A DNA stretch of 13,128 bases from Candidatus Thorarchaeota archaeon (GTDB lineage Archaea; Asgardarchaeota; Thorarchaeia; Thorarchaeales; Thorarchaeaceae), in the NCBI GenBank assembly GCA_048882325.1, contig JBHLRS010000063.1, forward strand, positions 1-13,128, given 5' to 3'. The position numbers and the translations under genes are program-made. The notes under the pieces are model-generated. The model did no database searches. It had not been told where the DNA came from and saw nothing but the letters and a program-made list of their open reading frames with translations. This document shows, piece after piece, positions 152 through 11,354 of this stretch (position 1 is its first letter; every line of letters starts with the position of its first letter).

Positions 152-186
152 CTGAGAAACTGAAGATAGAAGTGCGCCACTGGTAG
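152..186 (-). repeat. Degenerate copy of tRNA-Asn 3' end plus trailing sequence (att-like site)
   Basis: Minus strand CTACCAGTGGCGC-AC versus tRNA CTACCGGCGGCGCCA. The trailing CTTC..TTCA..TTCTCAG is shared with the copy at 1042-1071. It directly abuts the YkgJ stop codon. Confidence 0.6.
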
Positions 187-999
187 TCATTGAGATGAGT
201 TTTCGAGCCAATATTCAACTAGTTTTGGTTTCAATCTCTCTACCCGATCTAACCAAGTGGAAGTTTCTTGTTCAACTTTTTTACTTGTTGCAATAGATGT
301 AAGTCTGACAATATCCTCGTCACCGATTGGTTTCGAGTAATCTAGTATTTCGTCAGGAATCATACTCGGGTCATCAAATTGGATCCCAAAATGTTTCAAA
401 ATGGCGTATGTGATCTCATTCGCAGTTGGAGTGTTACTCGATAGAGTTACTGCATCCTCTCCCCTCTTTCTTTTCTGTCCAAAGAGGTATCCGAATACAC
501 TCTCATCAATGTATCTTGCCGCAAAGAACTGCAGGATCTCATTCAAAAACTCCAGTCCTTTCTCGTAGACACTCTCACTCACTTTGATCATTTCATCACA
601 TGATCCACGACAGGCATAGGACTCGGGAAACCTTTCTATCTCGAGATACGCTGTCCTGAAACCACTGTTTGATTCATCGATAAATCCAATCAGGTTGAGG
701 GGAAACAACTGGCATGCAAGAGGTCTCTTGGAATAAATCAAACACTTATCGTCGATGTGAAAGGGTCAATATTCGTCGAAATTCAATACATACCGGTGCC
801 ATAGATTGAAGACTGTCGAGTTGATACTCATATACTCCTTTGCGAACGATGTTCCACCCAATTCTATCAATGACTGAGCTATGATTGGTGCCTCGACATC
901 TGTGAGGAATACTGCTTGTTTCTTACAGCATTCACCACAATGCACACAAAGAGAATCCATGATTTCTTTGAGCTCTTCTACGACTTTTTCAATCAGCAT
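187..999 (-). CDS. YkgJ-family (CxxCxxCC) cysteine-cluster protein interrupted by one in-frame TGA at 766-768 (pseudogene or UGA-recoded; 270 aa if read through)
   Basis: ORFs 766..999 and 187..741 share a frame. The junction reads F-D-E-Y-(TGA)-P-F-H-I-D-D-K-C-L-I-Y-S-K-R-P-L-A-C-Q-L-F-P. CVHCGECC plus [C]PF..CxIYxxRPxxCxxFP is the YkgJ/FliB-like signature. Confidence 0.8.
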
Positions 1000-1041
1000 T
1001 GGTTTCGTAGATGAAGAGGTCTTCTCTGGGTATTAAGACTA

Positions 1042-1071
1042 CTGAGAATGAAGAAGTGGCGCCGCCGGTAG
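1042..1071 (-). repeat. Exact copy of the last 15 nt of tRNA-Asn (1057-1071) plus trailing sequence (att-like site)
   Basis: The reverse complement of 1057-1071 is CTACCGGCGGCGCCA, identical to 3845-3859. Confidence 0.85.
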
Positions 1072-1200
1072 TATTTCCTGTTCCAATTGTTTTGATGTCT
1101 TCAGCTCATTTTTTAATCTACAACAACTCCCAAAATTGTAACCGCATGACATAAATACTATTACGTCTATTATGTATTATAATTGAGGGGATTGTAATAC

Positions 1201-2382
1201 ATGCCTTGGGACTACGAAGGAATAGCATTCTACATGTGCACAACAGCATGTCCGAATCACGTTCCATTATATAGAGCGTGGAATGGTTCAGATCATTTCT
1301 ACACCACGAGTGTAACGGAATACAATGGACTACCTAGTTCATACTCTCGTGAGGGAATTGCTGGTTATATTGCAAACTCAGCACTACCTGGTCATGTGCC
1401 TCTGTATAGGCTTTACGGGCCTCATATTGATGACCACATGTACACTGCAAGTAAGAGTGAACATGATAACGCAGCCCATCCATGGGTTAGTGAAGGAATC
1501 CAAGGGTATGTTATACCTGGCGGCGCTTCAATACCATCAAATCACGTACCTGTATATCGATCATATAATTCTGAAATTGGAGACCATTTCCTTACTACTA
1601 GTGCAGATGAAATCGTGTCTGCAGGTGGCATTCTATTCCGATATTCAACAGGTTGCGTTTCAGATTATGGTGGGTGTCCGGGAAACAATTTACCTTTGTG
1701 TGTCCCAGAGGGTGAAATATTTCGCTTCTGGTATGATTTAGCAGGATTCCAAAGGTTCTCTCGGTGGGATGATGGTAATGTTTGGGGTTCTGATTTTCGA
1801 GATGCGGCCAACGGTGACCTCGAACCCCAGGGAGGAAGTGATATCCCCGACATCTACCTATTCGCTGGTCATGGTACTTGCCAGAATCCTCCAGTGGCTA
1901 CATCTCCTGACTTTATCAACACTTGTGGCAACTTCGGTACACCGGATGCAACAAGAATAGGAACTCAGTCTCGATGGGGCAACGGAATAGGTAATCTCAA
2001 GTTTGCCTTTATTGATGCCAGCTGTCCCATGGATTTGGTATCTATCAGAAATGAATGGTTCCCTGTATTCCAGGGACTTCATGTAGCTGTAGGTCATTCG
2101 GGTACTACAACTCAGGATTGTCTTGACAGTACGGGTCGAGGAGCACTGTTAGCCGCATACACTTCAGGAGCGTTACCTTATTTTATTCCTCATCTAAGTG
2201 TTGGAGATGCATGGATGATTGCTGGAATAATAGACATTCAGAGAGGGTGCTGCGCTGTTGCCTTGGCCGCAGGTAATGATCGCGCGGATGCTATCGACAG
2301 ACGTGAGAATGAGAAAGTGCGAGAACATAGATCCGATCCAACACCCAACTGGTTTGCTTGGAAATGGATGTGTCGTACATGA
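1201..2382 (+). CDS. DUF5648-like repeat N-terminus fused to a DUF6345-like (putative caspase/clan-CD fold, His-Cys dyad) domain
   Basis: Three HVP(L/V)YRxxxx..DH(F/M)xT(T/A)S repeats. C-terminal IYLFAGHG, RWGNG.NLKFAFIDASC and FQGLH motifs. Purine-rich RBS GAGGGG upstream. Family names recognised from memory. Confidence 0.7.
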   Translation: MPWDYEGIAFYMCTTACPNHVPLYRAWNGSDHFYTTSVTEYNGLPSSYSREGIAGYIANSALPGHVPLYRLYGPHIDDHMYTASKSEHDNAAHPWVSEGIQGYVIPGGASIPSNHVPVYRSYNSEIGDHFLTTSADEIVSAGGILFRYSTGCVSDYGGCPGNNLPLCVPEGEIFRFWYDLAGFQRFSRWDDGNVWGSDFRDAANGDLEPQGGSDIPDIYLFAGHGTCQNPPVATSPDFINTCGNFGTPDATRIGTQSRWGNGIGNLKFAFIDASCPMDLVSIRNEWFPVFQGLHVAVGHSGTTTQDCLDSTGRGALLAAYTSGALPYFIPHLSVGDAWMIAGIIDIQRGCCAVALAAGNDRADAIDRRENEKVREHRSDPTPNWFAWKWMCRT

Positions 2383-2403
2383 TTGAAGGAGAAGGGAATA
2401 CTG

Positions 2404-3297
2404 ATGAATAAAGAAGACAACACATTCAATGCTGAAATGGAACAATTTGCAAAGCTTGCACAAACTCTTGGTCTGACATTGGAGAAAGTCATTAGCAGAG
2501 GATCTGAACGAAATTTGTTAGGCATAAAGTCAGAGTATGTACTGTTCAGCCGGCGACTAGATAGTCGTACATACTTTGTTCAGGACACGAGATATGGAAA
2601 TGGACTTGAAGGTGGGATCTTCCGGGGAACAAAAGAAGAACAATATGAGTCTGCTCGATTTATCTTTAAGCATTTGAATATCCCATTAAATGAGATTGCA
2701 GAAGAAGTCCTGCAAACGGAAATGACTCAGGAAGCGTACGTTCATCAAGAATCCGGAGAGGTCAAACTGGAAGAAGTCCAAGAAGGGAAGAGTTTTGTCT
2801 ATTTTACTCGCCAAATCCAAGACATTCCTGTATGGTCTTCAAATCTAACGTTGGGATTAATGAAGGAAAAGCAAATTGGGTTCATGCAGCTTCATTGGCC
2901 AGAAATCCCTCGTCATGTAATTGAGGAAGCACATAAACTCGCACAAAAAATAGAAGCTGGATGGCGGCCTGATGAACAGAAAGGTGCAATAATCGAGTCA
3001 GTAGAAGCAGGCATTATCCATTCACCAGCTATTGGGTTTGTCATGGATATCTTACCAGTTATTCGTGTTGTCTCTGCGTCAGTTGACAAGAACTTTTCAA
3101 GAAAACAGGTCCTGTATCTAGACCGACACGGTATAGACGTACCACTCCCTCGACATGCTATAATGCCATTTGAGCCAAAACAACAGGAAAGGACTCTAGC
3201 AAAACGTGGTGGCATCTCATTAAGAAATCTGGTTATTGTTGCAGTAATAGTTATAGCTGCCATCATCATATCAATTTACTATGTTCTCTTTGGTTAA
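2404..3297 (+). CDS. Membrane-anchored protein with peptidase-propeptide (FTP/PepSY/YcdB)-like segments
   Basis: Long ORF (track starts it at TTG 2383; ATG 2404 follows AAGGAGAAGGGA). Contains the VYFTRQIQDIPVWSSNLTLGL motif and a C-terminal hydrophobic helix LVIVAVIVIAAIIISIYYVLF. Confidence 0.65.
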   Translation: MNKEDNTFNAEMEQFAKLAQTLGLTLEKVISRGSERNLLGIKSEYVLFSRRLDSRTYFVQDTRYGNGLEGGIFRGTKEEQYESARFIFKHLNIPLNEIAEEVLQTEMTQEAYVHQESGEVKLEEVQEGKSFVYFTRQIQDIPVWSSNLTLGLMKEKQIGFMQLHWPEIPRHVIEEAHKLAQKIEAGWRPDEQKGAIIESVEAGIIHSPAIGFVMDILPVIRVVSASVDKNFSRKQVLYLDRHGIDVPLPRHAIMPFEPKQQERTLAKRGGISLRNLVIVAVIVIAAIIISIYYVLFG

Positions 3298-3308
3298 TAT
3301 TATGAAAA

Positions 3309-3323
3309 TGGCGTCGTCGATAG
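3309..3323 (-). repeat. Degenerate copy of tRNA-Asn 3' end (att-like site)
   Basis: Minus strand CTATCGACGACGCCA versus CTACCGGCGGCGCCA: 12/15, all three differences are transitions. Lies 11 bp after the stop at 3297. Confidence 0.55.
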
Positions 3324-3616
3324 ACCCTTCAAATGAGGAATTAATATGGCAATAATTACACATGACGAAAAATGTAAGCAAGGAGTGAGCATTGTTCTGG
3401 GACATTTTTATTACGAAGTAGCATGAAGGATTACGTTTGGGAAGAATCTTGCAGTGAGGTGCGCAAGCTACAAACCAACAGTATAGAATGGACGTGGCGT
3501 TTAACTATTCCCAAGGATTTACCATCTAAAATCAATCCAAATTGGACTGGACCTAATATTACGATTGATCCCTACGATATTACATTCATCGAAAATTTGA
3601 CTTTATATTTCAACCA

Positions 3617-3634
3617 AACAGCAATGTTAATATT
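3617..3634 (+). promoter_or_regulatory. tRNA-Asn promoter (BRE/TATA)
   Basis: AACAGCAATGTTAATATT with TTAATA starting 35 nt upstream of the tRNA. Same spacing at tRNA-Glu; a related GCAACGTTAATAT precedes tRNA(CAT). Confidence 0.7.
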
Positions 3635-3661
3635 CGAATCCTCAGTCCGACCCCGATACAA

Positions 3662-3859
3662 GCCGCCGTGGCTCAGTAGGTAGCGTGATGTTCCTTTGGG
3701 AACTTCGCACCTAAAGCGACAGCTTTTAGGCGCGATTCGCGTCATGCCGCTTAAGCCTGTTACCTCTCAGTAGGTAGCTGAGAGCCAGACAGTTGTTGGT
3801 CGTAGGTTCGAGAATCGATCTCCTTGCGAGGTCGATCGGTGACCCTACCGGCGGCGCCA
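3662..3859 (+). tRNA. tRNA-Asn: tRNA-Asn(GTT) with four introns (3684-3714, 3721-3753, 3763-3790, 3813-3842)
   Basis: Removing the four segments at BHB-type cut sites gives GCCGCCG TG GCTC AGTAGGTA GAGC G ACAGC CTGTTAA GTTGT TGGTC GTAGG TTCGAGC CCTAC CGGCGGC GCCA: 76 nt, all stems pair, anticodon GTT, discriminator G73, encoded CCA. Confidence 0.93.
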
Positions 3860-3907
3860 TCTACACTATAGTTAACTCATAACATTTCCTTATTCCTGAT
3901 TATCTAT

Positions 3908-6349
3908 CTAGCTTTCGATTGTTTCTCTAAACCATGACTCAGCTTTACTTCGTTTTCGTTCATCATTTGGAGGACAGATTTTCACCCATTGAACGGTGTC
4001 CTCCTTTGAAGATGTAGTAGCCCTCCAACGAACTGATACTTTCTCACCAGTAGGATAATATCTGATTAAATCTGGTCTAACGGTGATTTTGATACCCAGA
4101 CTTTCTGCAACAGCACTCTCATCGTCAACAAGATTACTTCTATTTGCATCCACGGCTGAAACCAGATTCTTCGCTGCACTCGCAACCTCCGAATTGTCAC
4201 TTTTTTGGAGTTGCGATAATGCCGTATAAGATATCCAACTCTGTTTAACCAGATCCTCGGTTTGTCCACCGGATTCTTTTACTAAGGAAATCTCAGACGC
4301 TCCTACTTTGGATTGAAAACCAAACTTGTTCTGTTCATCCTTGATGTACAGAGCTACATTTCTACTCCAGTAAAAGTATCCTGTTGAATCAAATCCCCCA
4401 TCTTCAGGAATTAACTCCTCCAAGTACGCACATCGAGCTTCCTCTGACCAGTTGAGATATCCCTCAGGAAGACTTGGATTTGTAATGGTCTTGTTTCCAG
4501 GAGTCATTCCTTCATGAATCATGATTAGTCCTATCTGATTCTGAATGTGAACCTCGTATGACCCTGGACGAAGTTTCGGTCTGAGTGTGATATCACCAAA
4601 GTTGCTGAGAATGTCCTGAACGCGATCTATACGTTCGAGATGTTCTTCGTTGTAGGTTATCCTCCCCGACTCTCGTAAATGACAATCACTTACAATAATG
4701 GCTGCAAGACGAGCCTTCAAGACTTCTAATTCCTCTCCCTCTGGAAATCGCGGGTTCTCGATTCCCGCCTGACCATTTACTCCAGTGACCTTGGTCACAC
4801 GCCCCTCCAAATTGGAAAGTTTTCTATCCGTTGAATCAAGATAGAATCTAACAATTTTCCCTTCCAATCGCGTACTCTTCTCACTTATTGGTCTCTTCCT
4901 TGCTGAAGTTCCATCATCTCCTGCATGAAACTGCTTCACAACCTCATTCATGTGTTTCAATGACTTGTGAGGGCTCTCCTCCAGTCCAAATTGCCTCTGA
5001 AGTTCATTGACAATACAGGTGATCTCTTTGTTGTCCCTGAAGTAGTAGAACTCTGTTTCATAGGCGCTGACAAGTTCATCAGACCTGTTCTTCGGAATCC
5101 AAGTGTACATTCTATCATCAACATATGCAACACGGGCTCGATTGTGCTCAAGACCAAGTTTTTGGGTTAGGGATTCCTCAATCTCCTGTCTGTTTGAATC
5201 AATAAACCGTTTCAGTTCAGTATTTTGCTTAGAATCAATCTCTGACTTGAAGTCTGCATACCGAACAGGATGTTTCTCACTTGATTCATCCCTGAGCATA
5301 TGCTCAACAGCTGAAGCTACTCTTTCGGAAGAGAGCCTGTCAGACTCCCACATCTTTTCGATAGACTCTCGAACCTTATGAGGCTCTATCTGCTTGATCG
5401 CTTCTTCCCTATCCCCAACCTCCTGTGTTACACTCTTCCTGATCCTCTCGATGTCTTCAATCTGTGGAGAGTCCTTGGTCCATTCCTCCATTATTCTCTC
5501 TTCTTCATGCTCGCGCAGTCTTTTGATTAGATTAGGCTCAATACCGTTCCTACAATATCCAATGAAGGTGTGACTCACATCGTGCTGTTCAGCAAGATCA
5601 TCCCTCTTTGTAGAATGTTCATCCCTGACTTCATAATAGACCTCACACCGTCTATAATTCTCATCAAAGCCCGCTCGTTCTCGCTCCTCAGGATACTTCT
5701 CTAGTAAATCATCAACATCCTTCATTGATTCAATTTGAGCCTCAGGTAGACCATCATGAACTGACTCGTACATTCGTCTGAGTTCACGGCTCTCGACCTC
5801 TTCTACAATACTTGGTTTTTCAACATCCTCACCGCGGTCGAGCTTTTCGAAATACTCTGATGCCTCAGTTTCATCCTTTTCATAGCTCTTACGCAGTTTC
5901 ATTTCAGAGTGATTCTCAACAGCATTGTCATATTCTTCCTTTGTAGAAATCTCTCCAAAACGAGATTCCTTTTGTTCATACTGTTCCTCAGATGAGTCGT
6001 CTATGACCTCCCTCCTCTCCTGGTCATCAAGTTCCTCCAGAGCTTTCCTGAGTTTTTCCTCAGTGGACTCGTTAGACTTCTCCATCTTCTCTAGGTCCTC
6101 AAGAACCTCGTCAAGCTTTTGGGATATTTCCTCCTCCCTTTCTCTCTCCTCATTCACCTCCTTGACTACCTGCTCGACAATCTCCCTAGCGGAAACCTCA
6201 GCTACTTGATCGGTTTCAGAAGCATCGAGAGCGAGTTCACGAGCACGCATCAATTCAACAGATTCCAAGTCCTCGACCTTGGTTTCATCAACCTCTTCAC
6301 GGTACTCCCTGCGATGACGCTTGATTCCCTCTCCGGACACGCCCTCCAT
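3908..6349 (-). CDS. Free-standing protein with acidic coiled-coil N-terminus, HTH and C-terminal double-motif LAGLIDADG (DOD-type) endonuclease-like domain
   Basis: Motif 1 ARLAAIIVSDCHL and motif 2 AYLEELIPEDGGF, about 95 aa apart. HTH-like RDDLAEQHDVSHTFIGYCRNG. Strong SD AGGAGGT at 6356-6362. No intein splice-junction motifs seen. Confidence 0.7.
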   Translation of the reverse strand: MEGVSGEGIKRHRREYREEVDETKVEDLESVELMRARELALDASETDQVAEVSAREIVEQVVKEVNEEREREEEISQKLDEVLEDLEKMEKSNESTEEKLRKALEELDDQERREVIDDSSEEQYEQKESRFGEISTKEEYDNAVENHSEMKLRKSYEKDETEASEYFEKLDRGEDVEKPSIVEEVESRELRRMYESVHDGLPEAQIESMKDVDDLLEKYPEERERAGFDENYRRCEVYYEVRDEHSTKRDDLAEQHDVSHTFIGYCRNGIEPNLIKRLREHEEERIMEEWTKDSPQIEDIERIRKSVTQEVGDREEAIKQIEPHKVRESIEKMWESDRLSSERVASAVEHMLRDESSEKHPVRYADFKSEIDSKQNTELKRFIDSNRQEIEESLTQKLGLEHNRARVAYVDDRMYTWIPKNRSDELVSAYETEFYYFRDNKEITCIVNELQRQFGLEESPHKSLKHMNEVVKQFHAGDDGTSARKRPISEKSTRLEGKIVRFYLDSTDRKLSNLEGRVTKVTGVNGQAGIENPRFPEGEELEVLKARLAAIIVSDCHLRESGRITYNEEHLERIDRVQDILSNFGDITLRPKLRPGSYEVHIQNQIGLIMIHEGMTPGNKTITNPSLPEGYLNWSEEARCAYLEELIPEDGGFDSTGYFYWSRNVALYIKDEQNKFGFQSKVGASEISLVKESGGQTEDLVKQSWISYTALSQLQKSDNSEVASAAKNLVSAVDANRSNLVDDESAVAESLGIKITVRPDLIRYYPTGEKVSVRWRATTSSKEDTVQWVKICPPNDERKRSKAESWFRETIES

Positions 6350-6424
6350 TTAGAAACCTCCTACAAACATGACTTGACCTTCTTCAGACTATATCGATAG
6401 TATAGTTCATAGAAATCCAAAGGG

Positions 6425-6490
6425 TTTTGCATGCAGATGATTACGGGAAATTCTCTGTCTGTCTCCAGAAATATTGTTTTTTGCATGCAG
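6425..6490. repeat. 12-bp direct repeat TTTTGCATGCAG (palindromic core TGCATGCA)
   Basis: Copies at 6425-6436 and 6479-6490, upstream of the 813-aa ORF. Confidence 0.6.
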
Positions 6491-6609
6491 CGGTCGGATT
6501 TTGGGCTGTTTTGATGGAGAATTTGCTGTATTGAGAGTTATGGGCCCTATTTCAAGGGCTCTTTTGGTAAATTCTGCAATCAGATTTCAACAAAACCAGA
6601 AAACTAGTC

Positions 6610-6629
6610 ACCTACTGAGCCACGGCGGC
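6610..6629 (-). pseudogene. Truncated tRNA-Asn 5' fragment (nt 1-20)
   Basis: 6610-6633 is the exact reverse complement of 3658-3681 (ACAAGCCGCCGTGGCTCAGTAGGT). Identity stops in the D-loop. Confidence 0.85.
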
Positions 6630-6657
6630 TTGTTCTCGGTGTGTCGCTTCTGAATGC

Positions 6658-6675
6658 AATATTAACATTGCTGTT
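6658..6675 (-). promoter_or_regulatory. Second copy of the tRNA-Asn promoter
   Basis: Exact reverse complement of 3617-3634 (18/18), spaced from the tRNA start within 1 nt of the plus-strand copy. Confidence 0.75.
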
Positions 6676-6682
6676 GGTTTGT

Positions 6683-8911: not shown

Positions 8912-9018
8912 TGGTGGGCCCGAGGGGATTTGAACCCCTGACCGATCCCCTATCTGGACGAAATGTCCAGATATACAGGTTATGAGCCTGCTGCTCTACC
9001 AAGCTGAGCTACGGGCCC
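8912..9018 (-). tRNA. tRNA with CAT anticodon, probably Ile2, with a 30-nt intron at 43/44 (8945-8974)
   Basis: GGGCCCG TA GCTC AGCTTGGTA GAGC A GCAGG CTCATAA CCTGT [intron] CGGTC AGGGG TTCAAAT CCCCT CGGGCCC ACCA. The GGGCCC acceptor stem is typical of archaeal Ile tRNAs rather than Met. Confidence 0.9.
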
Positions 9019-9628: not shown

Positions 9629-9706
9629 GCCCCGATAGTGTAGCCCGGCCCAGCATCTAGGCCTTTCGAGTCTAAGACCCGGGTTCGAATCCCGGTCGGG
9701 GCACCA
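9629..9706 (+). tRNA. tRNA-Glu: tRNA-Glu(TTC), intronless
   Basis: GCCCCGA/TCGGGGC acceptor stem, TAGGC-CTTTCGA-GTCTA anticodon arm, CCGGG-TTCGAAT-CCCGG T arm, ACCA end; TTAATAA at 9594-9600. Confidence 0.96.
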
Positions 9707-9894
9707 TTTTCTTTATTCCATAACATGAATCATATGATTCTGCGCCTATGAAGCTCTCATCACGTTGTAGGAAATGCAGGATGAAGCTAGAAAGAGAGAG
9801 ATAGTCCCATTTCCAGATTCTTGACAAGATTCTAATACTTGGCAATGCTAATTGTGTTTACCGTGTTTGCTGGAAACATCGGAGGCTATGAGTA

Positions 9895-10782
9895 ATGAGC
9901 GGATTTGGAACCGTGCGGGTTACATGTCCCAATTGTAATGCCACTTATGGGTACAATATAACCGATTCAAAAAACCTGACTGTAACCTGCCAGAACTGTG
10001 GAAGGTCATTAGAGGTTGAGCTTGTGCCTACGTCTCACCAAGGTTTTGCTGGGGATGGTATGAATGTTGCATGGCCAAAAGTTTGTATGGGCTGTGGAAT
10101 GCAGGAGAATCTGACGACCATCGATGAGCCCTTCAACCGTAAGATGGCCATAAGTAGTACGAAACTTGGAATGCAGACGACAACTAGAATAAGTAGTTTC
10201 AGTGGGGTAGCTAGAATCTCCCTATGTCCAAACTGCAAAAAAGAGGGAGATAGAGATGTCACTTTGCAGCGATTACCTGGCACAATTGCGGTTCTTGCTT
10301 CCTTTTTGGTTTTAGTATTTCTCTGGTTGCCATATGGAGGGATTACAATGCTCTATGGCATTCTCTCCGGGCTATGGATTCCAGTCATTTTTCTCGGATT
10401 GGGTCCGCTTAGATCTACCAGCCTTCTCGATTCATTCGGAAGAATAAATATTCAATACAGGACCGGAAATATTGGATTCTCCTTTAGGAATGCGTTATAC
10501 CACTCTGCATTCAGTGGTATGAACTCTCATTTACAATCTTGGACCTGGGAACAAGACACGCCTCAAGGCTATTCTGATACAAAGGTTGGAGTCAATGTCG
10601 ATGCCGGTTTCAGAATCATATCTATTCTAATGTGTCCAGCATTTCTATTCGGTCTTGTACTTGTTAGCGTTGCTGGATTTGTGGGTGTGGGAATGTCAAT
10701 GGGCATTCCCCTTATTATAGGACTAGTCATCATGGTGCTTCTTCAATTAATGGGGAAAATGAGCAGTGACAAGTCTACTTAG
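9895..10782 (+). CDS. Zinc-ribbon-containing membrane protein
   Basis: CPNC/CQNC and CMGC/CPNC pairs, about four hydrophobic helices, GGAGG at 9881-9885. Confidence 0.8.
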   Translation: MSGFGTVRVTCPNCNATYGYNITDSKNLTVTCQNCGRSLEVELVPTSHQGFAGDGMNVAWPKVCMGCGMQENLTTIDEPFNRKMAISSTKLGMQTTTRISSFSGVARISLCPNCKKEGDRDVTLQRLPGTIAVLASFLVLVFLWLPYGGITMLYGILSGLWIPVIFLGLGPLRSTSLLDSFGRINIQYRTGNIGFSFRNALYHSAFSGMNSHLQSWTWEQDTPQGYSDTKVGVNVDAGFRIISILMCPAFLFGLVLVSVAGFVGVGMSMGIPLIIGLVIMVLLQLMGKMSSDKST

Positions 10783-10833
10783 AGATAGAACCAAAGCGCT
10801 ATAGAATGATTAGACATCCTAGTACCGGATAAG

Positions 10834-10865
10834 GACCCGAGTTTGAATCCCGGTCGGGGCACCAT
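10834..10865 (+). repeat. Copy of tRNA-Glu 3' end (attR-like)
   Basis: GACCCGAGTTTGAATCCCGGTCGGGGCACCAT, 30/32 identical to 9676-9707. Confidence 0.9.
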
Positions 10866-10942
10866 CTCCATCTAGAGTTTAGGTCTTTTGGAAAAACATA
10901 AACAGCAACCAATACAACTGTATTGCTAGTTGGAGATACTAG

Positions 10943-11242
10943 ATGAACCAGGTTGATTATGTACTCGTGACTCTCTCCTTGATTGTAGTTTCAGCATCTA
11001 TTTTGTATACTCACTTCTTAGCTATTCAAGTGGTCTGGGCCGTAATGATTTGCAGTCTCTGTGTATATGGTGGATCCATGACATTCGCACTCATCGCTAG
11101 CATAAGAATATTTGAAAAACCGAACCAGATACATTCCCTTAATGTCTTGACTGTCCCAATAATCTACATCATCCGTTCAAAGTTTGCGATTATTGTAAGT
11201 CGAACAAAAAGACTTCAATCTCACAAAAGAGATAATATCTAA
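10943..11242 (+). CDS. Small hydrophobic membrane protein
   Basis: 99-aa ORF with 2-3 hydrophobic stretches and GGAGA upstream; its stop codon lies inside the next tRNA-Glu repeat. Confidence 0.5.
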   Translation: MNQVDYVLVTLSLIVVSASILYTHFLAIQVVWAVMICSLCVYGGSMTFALIASIRIFEKPNQIHSLNVLTVPIIYIIRSKFAIIVSRTKRLQSHKRDNI

Positions 11243-11275
11243 ACCTGGGTTCGAATCCCAATCAGGGCACCATTT
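11238..11275 (+). repeat. Second, more degenerate copy of tRNA-Glu 3' end
   Basis: TCTAA-ACCTGGGTTCGAATCCCAATCAGGGCACCATTT versus 9671-9709: 4 mismatches and 1 gap in 39. Confidence 0.85.
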
Positions 11276-11354
11276 ACTCTAAAATTCTCATTCTATCTGC
11301 TCACATCAAAATTCGCTCTTTGCAATGATCGTACAATAGTTTTTAGAATTTGAA

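Follow-up and report, generated by a model that had tools for sequence, protein, structure and literature searches.

A variable array of compact cassettes behind tRNA-Asn in Thorarchaeota, bounded by tRNA-tail sites and lacking a detectable recombinase

Additive flexible islands linked to tRNA genes have been described in Alteromonas and in "Ca. Actinomarinales" (fGI1; PMC7771536), where small cassettes at a tRNA gene differ between close relatives and are sometimes rearranged. Here, we examined a locus resembling these in positions 1 to 3323 of contig C63, the whole of which (13,128 bp) is referred to as the window. The contig belongs to a 3.6-Mb, 44% GC, 93%-complete metagenome-assembled genome (MAG) of Candidatus Thorarchaeota archaeon, which we compared with 28 genomes of its genus. 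Congener genomes are labeled G, loci fetched from them L, and contigs of the window's genome C. Our preferred interpretation, on which our confidence is evenly balanced, is that this segment is the tRNA-proximal part of a genus-wide, hypervariable additive island anchored at tRNA-Asn, with cassettes that recombine at a defined site. Variable small cassettes do lie at a single tRNA gene between conserved flanks, as in the described additive islands. The arrangement matches the known additive tRNA-linked islands and is a variant of them, its novelty being the Asgard lineage together with the lack of a detectable enzyme. While the described islands are bacterial, the host here is an Asgard archaeon; in addition, the site has a conserved 6-nt extension that is not tRNA sequence, the units mostly hold a single gene whose stop codon abuts the site, and in most genomes of the genus an integrase could not be detected.

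Integrons share with this locus a row of compact, mostly one-gene cassettes, a site placed directly after the gene, and the possibility of genes from another domain. However, the locus lacks every integron hallmark that we tested, namely IntI beside the array, a folding attC, and co-oriented promoterless cassettes. Instead, it has a linear tRNA-tail site and genes in both orientations with their own leaders. The "integron-like" label given by the initial annotation of this DNA is thus kept as an analogy only. Archaeal integrons were reportedly described in 2022. In streptococci, cis-mobilizable elements and site-specific accretion at the sites of integrative and conjugative elements (ICEs) involve integrase-less units with attachment sites, which the integrase of a related element can move in trans. 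The cassettes here likewise lack an integrase and could be moved in the same way, but the streptococcal units are larger and of recognizable ICE origin. The tycheposon-seeded islands of Prochlorococcus (Hackl et al., bioRxiv 10.1101/2020.12.28.424599) are tRNA linked as well, with newcomers pushing older units inward, partial tRNAs dividing the units, and cargo arranged in modules. Tycheposons have tyrosine or serine recombinases plus replication genes, and their circles were proven by PCR, whereas the units here carry no such genes. Archaeal elements integrated at tRNA genes (PMC6563490; for Thermococcales, PMC5495485) resemble the locus in their short sites, tandem arrays, and rearrangement between copies of a tRNA fragment. 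The median attachment site is 17 bp in Thaumarchaeota, and for archaeal integrated elements lengths of 8 to 26 bp are normal (PMC6563490), which gives the length of the present site a precedent. However, those elements measure 2.6 to 98 kb and encode an integrase by definition, while the cassettes here encode none. For Asgard archaea, the passages concerned in PMC8813620 and PMC11529989 describe larger integrase-bearing elements, aloposons, and viruses, and no arrays such as these.

The site was characterized from 42 orphan copies of the tRNA-Asn tail in more than 15 genomes. Their consensus is (CTA)CCGGCGGCGCCA followed by CTTCTT, and the information content is at background outside positions −3 to +17. 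This gives a site of ~18 to 21 nt, consisting of the last 12 to 15 nt of tRNA-Asn plus CTTCTT. The 6-nt extension is neither tRNA nor the native flank, ACTATAGTTAA, which follows the tRNA in array-less genomes. A 20-mer (tail plus CTTCT, up to 3 mismatches) was found in 19 of the 28 genomes, where as many as five co-oriented copies form a cluster, and the reversed-sequence control gave at most one copy per genome. A metagenome scan with a 17-mer returned mostly chance matches in GC-rich contigs, along with three short Thorarchaeota-like pieces. We found no sign that the site folds: a complementary 8-mer within 150 nt lay upstream of none and downstream of one of 33 orphan sites, and the mean folding z-score around orphan sites was 0.08. 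A hairpin or tRNA-like minihelix at the sites was therefore rejected.

Three minus-strand tail copies had been annotated initially in the window, and their coordinates and strands were as reported. The copy at 1057 to 1071 matches the tRNA-Asn 3' end at 15 of 15 bases, against 0.03 matches expected from shuffles of the window. It is the only other exact 15-nt tail copy in the genome; extended by CTTCTT, it is likewise unique, both as an 18-mer and as the 21-mer at 1051 to 1071. The copy at 172 to 186 is degenerate, matching the tail only if 1 nt is taken as deleted. Its orthologs are sites in G018 (L020, 6956 to 6970) and G019 (L029, 624 to 638), which carry one or two mismatches, and the start of the TPR cassette beyond it has 78% DNA identity over about 90 nt to the same two genomes, with related pieces in G013. 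Because both the site and the next ~90 nt have orthologs there, we regard this copy as genuine. The copy at 3309 to 3323 matches at 12 of 15 bases, and the genome holds 27 matches at up to 3 mismatches, or ~0.09 expected per window. Its match frequency is at background, which was a refuting condition set by the initial annotation, its alignment score falls inside the shuffle range, and it is not followed by CTTCTT; on these grounds, we treat it as unproven as a site. It may be the decayed tail of a broken resident tRNA gene. The 15 to 20 nt said to be shared beyond the CCA by two copies are real, but only the 6-nt CTTCTT is a general feature. Since the copies at 1057 to 1071 and 172 to 186 and the genus-wide arrays far exceed chance, chance matching is ruled out for these.

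Directly behind tRNA-Asn in 19 of the 28 genomes, the site bounds cassettes of 0.3 to 2.4 kb. Over 50 units delimited in this way, from more than 15 genomes, contain one or two intact genes, in either orientation, and neither an integrase nor a fragment of one. Their content confirmed the earlier description of compact, integrase-less cassettes bounded by tRNA-Asn tails. The cargo includes a recurrent 215-amino-acid (aa) two-helix membrane protein (FAM0), a ~90-aa zinc-ribbon protein, a methyltransferase, and TPR proteins, with a kinase-like protein, an M1 peptidase, and others found as well. The zinc-ribbon and APH cassettes and one of the two in the window (cassette A) are antisense to the array, while the FAM0, methyltransferase, and YkgJ cassettes are sense, with leaders of ~57 to 80 nt. 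Stop codons often abut the next site; in the window, the distance between gene end and site is 0 bp in one case and 11 bp in the other, in agreement with the initial annotation. Scanning the cassette proteins against PHROGs was uninformative.

The same cassettes have different neighbors in different genomes. For example, the zinc-ribbon cassette has an identical final 10 nt against the site in eight genomes, in which its neighbors differ. In G013, the methyltransferase comes before the zinc-ribbon protein and this before the TPR protein, yet the TPR protein comes before the methyltransferase in G018 and G019. These orders are circular in precedence, and a single ancestral row that lost different cassettes in different genomes is insufficient to explain them. 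No decay gradient was seen along the arrays. On their far side, the arrays end at a conserved block encoding a cupin, a metallophosphoesterase, and a MutS-like protein, to which tRNA-Asn is joined directly in array-less genomes; in the window's genome, this flank is the start of contig C38. Cassette content thus varied among relatives, and the first refuting condition of the initial annotation, syntenic and invariant cassette genes, was not borne out.

The two cassettes of the window differ in their distribution. Cassette B is one reading frame interrupted by an in-frame TGA at 766 to 768 (minus strand). Orthologs lie between the same sites in G016 (L023, 777 to 1643; 71% aa identity) and G022, and the DNA homology with G016 (82%) starts at the first base of the site, while the upstream neighbor differs. 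Cys occupies the TGA position in the G016 and G022 orthologs, and ARAGORN calls a tRNA-SeC on contig C26. The TGA could be either a selenocysteine codon or a fresh nonsense mutation. Cassette A has no counterpart in the relatives' loci. Its first gene (1201 to 2382) encodes DUF5648 and DUF6345 domains by Pfam and has 60 to 76% identity to hundreds of metagenomic DUF6345 proteins. The second (2404 to 3297) encodes 297 aa with a C-terminal membrane helix and had no match in a search of 300 other Asgard genomes. The two genes are also neighbors in a MAG of Pyrinomonadaceae (Acidobacteriota), with 63% and 47% aa identity. By this adjacency and the metagenomic DUF6345 kin, cassette A is a bacterial-type two-gene module.

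We then considered the orientation of the array relative to its tRNA. The tRNA-Asn in the window was called by neither ARAGORN nor Rfam. The plus-strand sequence at 3662 to 3859 starts with GCCGCCGTGGCTCAGTAGGT, ends with CTACCGGCGGCGCCA, and consists of the intron-less 76-nt tRNA-Asn(GUU) of G018 (76 of 76 exon bases), which ARAGORN accepts, plus four inserts of ~28 to 33 nt. Introns are present in many tRNA genes of this genome. The length of the tRNA-Asn gene among inspected congeners ranges from the 76 nt of G018 to the 198 nt of the window, which suggests that intron number differs among congeners. The genome contains just two instances of the 5' 20-mer of tRNA-Asn, this one and that at 6610 to 6629 (minus), making 3662 to 3859 the only functional tRNA-Asn found. 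Around these 20-mers, 3611 to 3681 (plus) and 6610 to 6681 (minus) are inverted copies comprising a promoter box and tRNA nt 1 to 20. The copy at 6610 to 6681 lies beside a ZIP gene and points at the array, which is the place of the whole tRNA gene in congeners. In G013, G005, G018, and G041, the order is ZIP gene, promoter and tRNA-Asn pointing away from it, and then tail copies in direct orientation, often spaced 0.7 kb apart. Thus, the earlier suggestion that the parent tRNA began at 6629 on the minus strand is borne out by the congeners, where promoter, tRNA, and array follow one another directly beside the same ZIP gene.

In these two arms, only the spacer that separates the promoter box from +1 evolves freely. 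In the orphan, this spacer is 71% like that of the resident promoter of G018 and 54% like that of the window's functional copy, which is itself 74% like that of G013. By these unequal similarities, the arms are different promoter alleles, and a simple in situ inversion between the 70-nt inverted arms is accordingly less likely. No remnant of a tRNA body was found in the spacer at 3324 to 3610 or in the region at 6350 to 6609, and the idea of a decayed resident tRNA body found no support beyond the weak 12-of-15 copy. A foreign unit appears to lie reversed over the body of the resident gene, made up of the functional tRNA, its native flank, and the 813-aa gene that converges on it. The tail copies look inverted and upstream because the resident tRNA gene was broken and an opposite-facing foreign tRNA-Asn unit now supplies the tRNA. 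G014 and G004 show the same arrangement as the window. The orphan promoter, the LAGLIDADG gene, and the inverted tRNA are found in G008 too, with no clear array beside them on its contig, while the unit of G001 lacks the arms and keeps the ancestral orientation.

Two other layouts were seen at this locus. In G042 (L025, 8613 to 11072), the tRNA faces the ZIP gene and has tail copies to its left and right that are oppositely oriented, which is a different rearrangement of the same locus. Elsewhere, copies of the promoter plus nt 1 to 20 pile up on the 5' side in direct orientation, 1.2 to 1.8 kb apart, in G014 (L015, 16006 to 17857), G018 (L020, 3866 to 5125), and G020 (C12, 287 to 2133). It looks as if cassettes stack on that side too.

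We propose that cassettes would be added, lost, and reordered by recombination at the sites. The likely route would be a Campbell-type insertion of a circle carrying one site, with deletion occurring between direct sites. The likeliest agent would be a site-specific recombinase acting in trans from an element not binned with these genomes. Later, the parent tRNA gene of the array was broken, and a foreign unit (promoter, four-intron tRNA-Asn, and LAGLIDADG gene) that faces the opposite way now lies between the surviving promoter plus exon 1 (6610 to 6681) and the array. We favor exchange at a defined site because the site boundary is uniform, the non-tRNA extension is conserved, decay gradients are lacking, and homology starts at the site. 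The sites, the modular and variable cassettes, the ancestral orientation, and the lack of known recombinases are direct results, whereas the chemistry of recombination and an enzyme acting in trans are inferred.

Several results weigh against this proposal. PF00589 tyrosine recombinases were not found in the window's genome or in 20 of the 28 congeners, and the two genomes with the largest arrays, G013 and G014, are among these 20. Neither an SSV-type integrase nor a serine recombinase nor Cas1 was found in the window's genome, no integrase fragment was found in any array locus, and a scan of virus contigs for the 20-mer gave 0 matches. The recombinase searches cover only these MAGs, so the negatives are bounded by MAG incompleteness and by unbinned elements. 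In addition, the duplication at the zinc-ribbon cassette of G006 runs ~22 nt into the native flank and carries G006's own tRNA variant, which looks more like target copying or homologous recombination than fixed-core exchange. Repeat length also varies between tRNAs, up to 39 nt at tRNA-Glu. The trans-acting recombinase of the initial annotation was found nowhere, and we can only infer it. The 20 congeners without PF00589 include a 97%-complete genome. These archaea may lack an Xer-type recombinase or may carry one too diverged to detect.

Other candidate agents were considered and set aside. The conserved flank genes (ZIP, cupin, phosphoesterase, and MutS-like) contain no recombinase by Pfam, and the idea that they are hidden recombinases was rejected on this content. 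FAM0 was rejected as a split SSV-type integrase due to its two membrane helices and the stop codon between FAM0 and the site. With no reverse transcriptase (RVT_1) in the window's genome and most genes being sense, tRNA-primed reverse transcription was rejected as well. A casposon would bring a Cas1 casposase, terminal inverted repeats, and a target duplication of 14 to 15 bp; however, no Cas1 was found in the window's genome, and the units have no terminal inverted repeats because only one side of each is conserved.

The strongest competitor to defined-site recombination is accretion without any dedicated recombinase, which we consider unlikely but worth serious attention. Under this explanation, host homologous recombination or break repair would be anchored on short tails and conserved flanks, with breaks perhaps made by selfish endonucleases, for example the LAGLIDADG protein encoded beside the tRNA, and the replacement tRNA end of the incoming DNA would displace the old one. 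The failure to find a recombinase, the varying duplication length (core plus ~22 nt of flank in G006; 39 nt at tRNA-Glu), and the resident tRNA variant in the G006 orphans all fit this explanation, as do the promoter plus exon 1 copies that have accumulated 5' of the tRNA in G014, G018, and G020. It also draws on the LAGLIDADG endonuclease fold encoded 48 bp from the tRNA. Yet the LAGLIDADG family was not found in the array-bearing genomes G013, G018, G005, G016, G019, and G022. Moreover, a sharp, uniform boundary with conserved CTTCTT over 42 copies would not be expected from displaced tails of arbitrary length, nor would arrays without a decay gradient, and 18 to 21 bp is short for efficient homologous recombination.

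We think it improbable that the copies are the left and right attachment sites of ordinary, tandemly integrated, integrase-bearing viruses or plasmids that have eroded to a few genes. It is well established that tRNA sites are reused in tandem and that elements leave eroded remnants (PMC6563490; bioRxiv 10.1101/2020.12.28.424599), and 8 of the 28 congeners do have tyrosine recombinases, on small contigs. However, erosion would hardly leave more than 50 units with intact genes and no trace of an integrase, unit borders that are identical between genomes, and stop codons that abut the sites. Furthermore, the site is absent from all six integrase loci that were retrieved from congeners (L035 to L040; 2.4 to 3.5 kb each). 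Finally, we give almost no credence to a true integron or to matches that arose by chance without any underlying feature: beyond the superficial resemblance to a cassette array and the chance-level copy at 3309 to 3323, there is no IntI and no hairpin site, genes run both ways, and the other two copies and the genus arrays lie far beyond chance.

Table 1. Features of the tRNA-Asn-linked locus in the window
Feature	Position	Strand	Basis
Beginning of the following cassette (TPR-protein type), truncated at the contig end	1..171	-	78% DNA identity to cassette starts in G018 and G019
Degenerate site copy 3, tRNA-Asn tail with 1-nt deletion, then CTTCT	172..186	-	Orthologous sites in G018 and G019
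Cassette B, one YkgJ-like gene (CxxCxxCC, PF03692) at 187-999, 57-nt leader	187..1056	-	Pfam match; orthologs in G016 and G022
Site copy 2, exact 15-nt tRNA-Asn tail plus CTTCTT	1051..1071	-	Unique in genome; fits genus consensus
Cassette A, gene pair running antisense to the array (1201-2382 and 2404-3297)	1072..3308	+	Pfam; Pyrinomonadaceae gene pair
Possible decayed tail of broken resident tRNA, 12/15, statistically unsupported	3309..3323	-	Site matching
Spacer without genes and without tRNA remnant	3324..3610	.	Searched by alignment
Promoter plus functional four-intron tRNA-Asn(GUU), followed by native flank ACTATAGTTAA at 3865-3875	3611..3859	+	G018 alignment
813-aa protein, acidic N-terminal half plus predicted C-terminal double-motif LAGLIDADG endonuclease fold	3908..6349	-	AlphaFold, Foldseek
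Orphan promoter plus nt 1-20 of resident tRNA-Asn, parent of array	6610..6681	-	Inverted repeat with 3611-3681; position beside ZIP gene

The 813-aa protein encoded between the two promoter arms has a Glu-rich N-terminal half. Its C-terminal 414 residues were modeled by AlphaFold at a pLDDT of 90, and Foldseek matched this model to I-Tsp061I, I-DmoI, and PI-SceI with a probability of 1.0, archaeal intron and intein LAGLIDADG endonucleases being among these matches. The gene shares its strand with the orphan tRNA promoter, which is located 260 nt upstream and might drive it. Recorded homologs of the protein come from Candidatus Thorarchaeota, and the family is patchy in the genus, with 0 to 8 copies per genome. 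A free-standing homing endonuclease that carries a copy of a gene end would have its gene beside the duplicated end; here, the gene adjoins the tRNA, and six array-bearing genomes showed no family member. The broken resident tRNA is better accounted for by this gene than the cassettes are.

Tail copies were also found behind other tRNA genes of this genome. On the same contig, a second array at 9629 to 11281 of the window has the 3' 39 nt of tRNA-Glu repeated at 10835 to 10873 (82%) and 11243 to 11281 (85%), and these repeats close the gene for a 295-aa zinc-ribbon protein and a 99-aa gene. Contig C20 has further short-spaced tail repeats (40006 to 40678 and 43514 to 44694), namely an exact copy of 29 nt behind tRNA-Thr and, behind a different tRNA, two copies of 19 nt. 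The two 19-nt copies are followed by TCTTCTTTG, and TCTTCTTT again comes after these tails. The window also contains an intron-bearing tRNA at 8915 to 9018 (minus), with a CAU anticodon in the Rfam alignment as opposed to Val(CAC) with another intron placement in ARAGORN.

A broader possibility, which we hold as doubtful speculation, is that Thorarchaeota have a gene-capture platform at several tRNA genes. It would do an integron-like job, with single-gene cassettes, some of them from bacteria, stacked and shuffled at a short linear site composed of the tRNA tail and a pyrimidine motif. The enzyme behind it would belong to an undescribed recombinase family, or else no dedicated recombinase would be involved. 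The puzzle is an enzyme that acts on a 21-bp tRNA-tail site in genomes seemingly without tyrosine recombinases; one cassette is of bacterial type, while none of the usual recombinases was found. A defined site at which compact foreign cassettes are stacked and exchanged would offer a concrete, testable route for gene flow.

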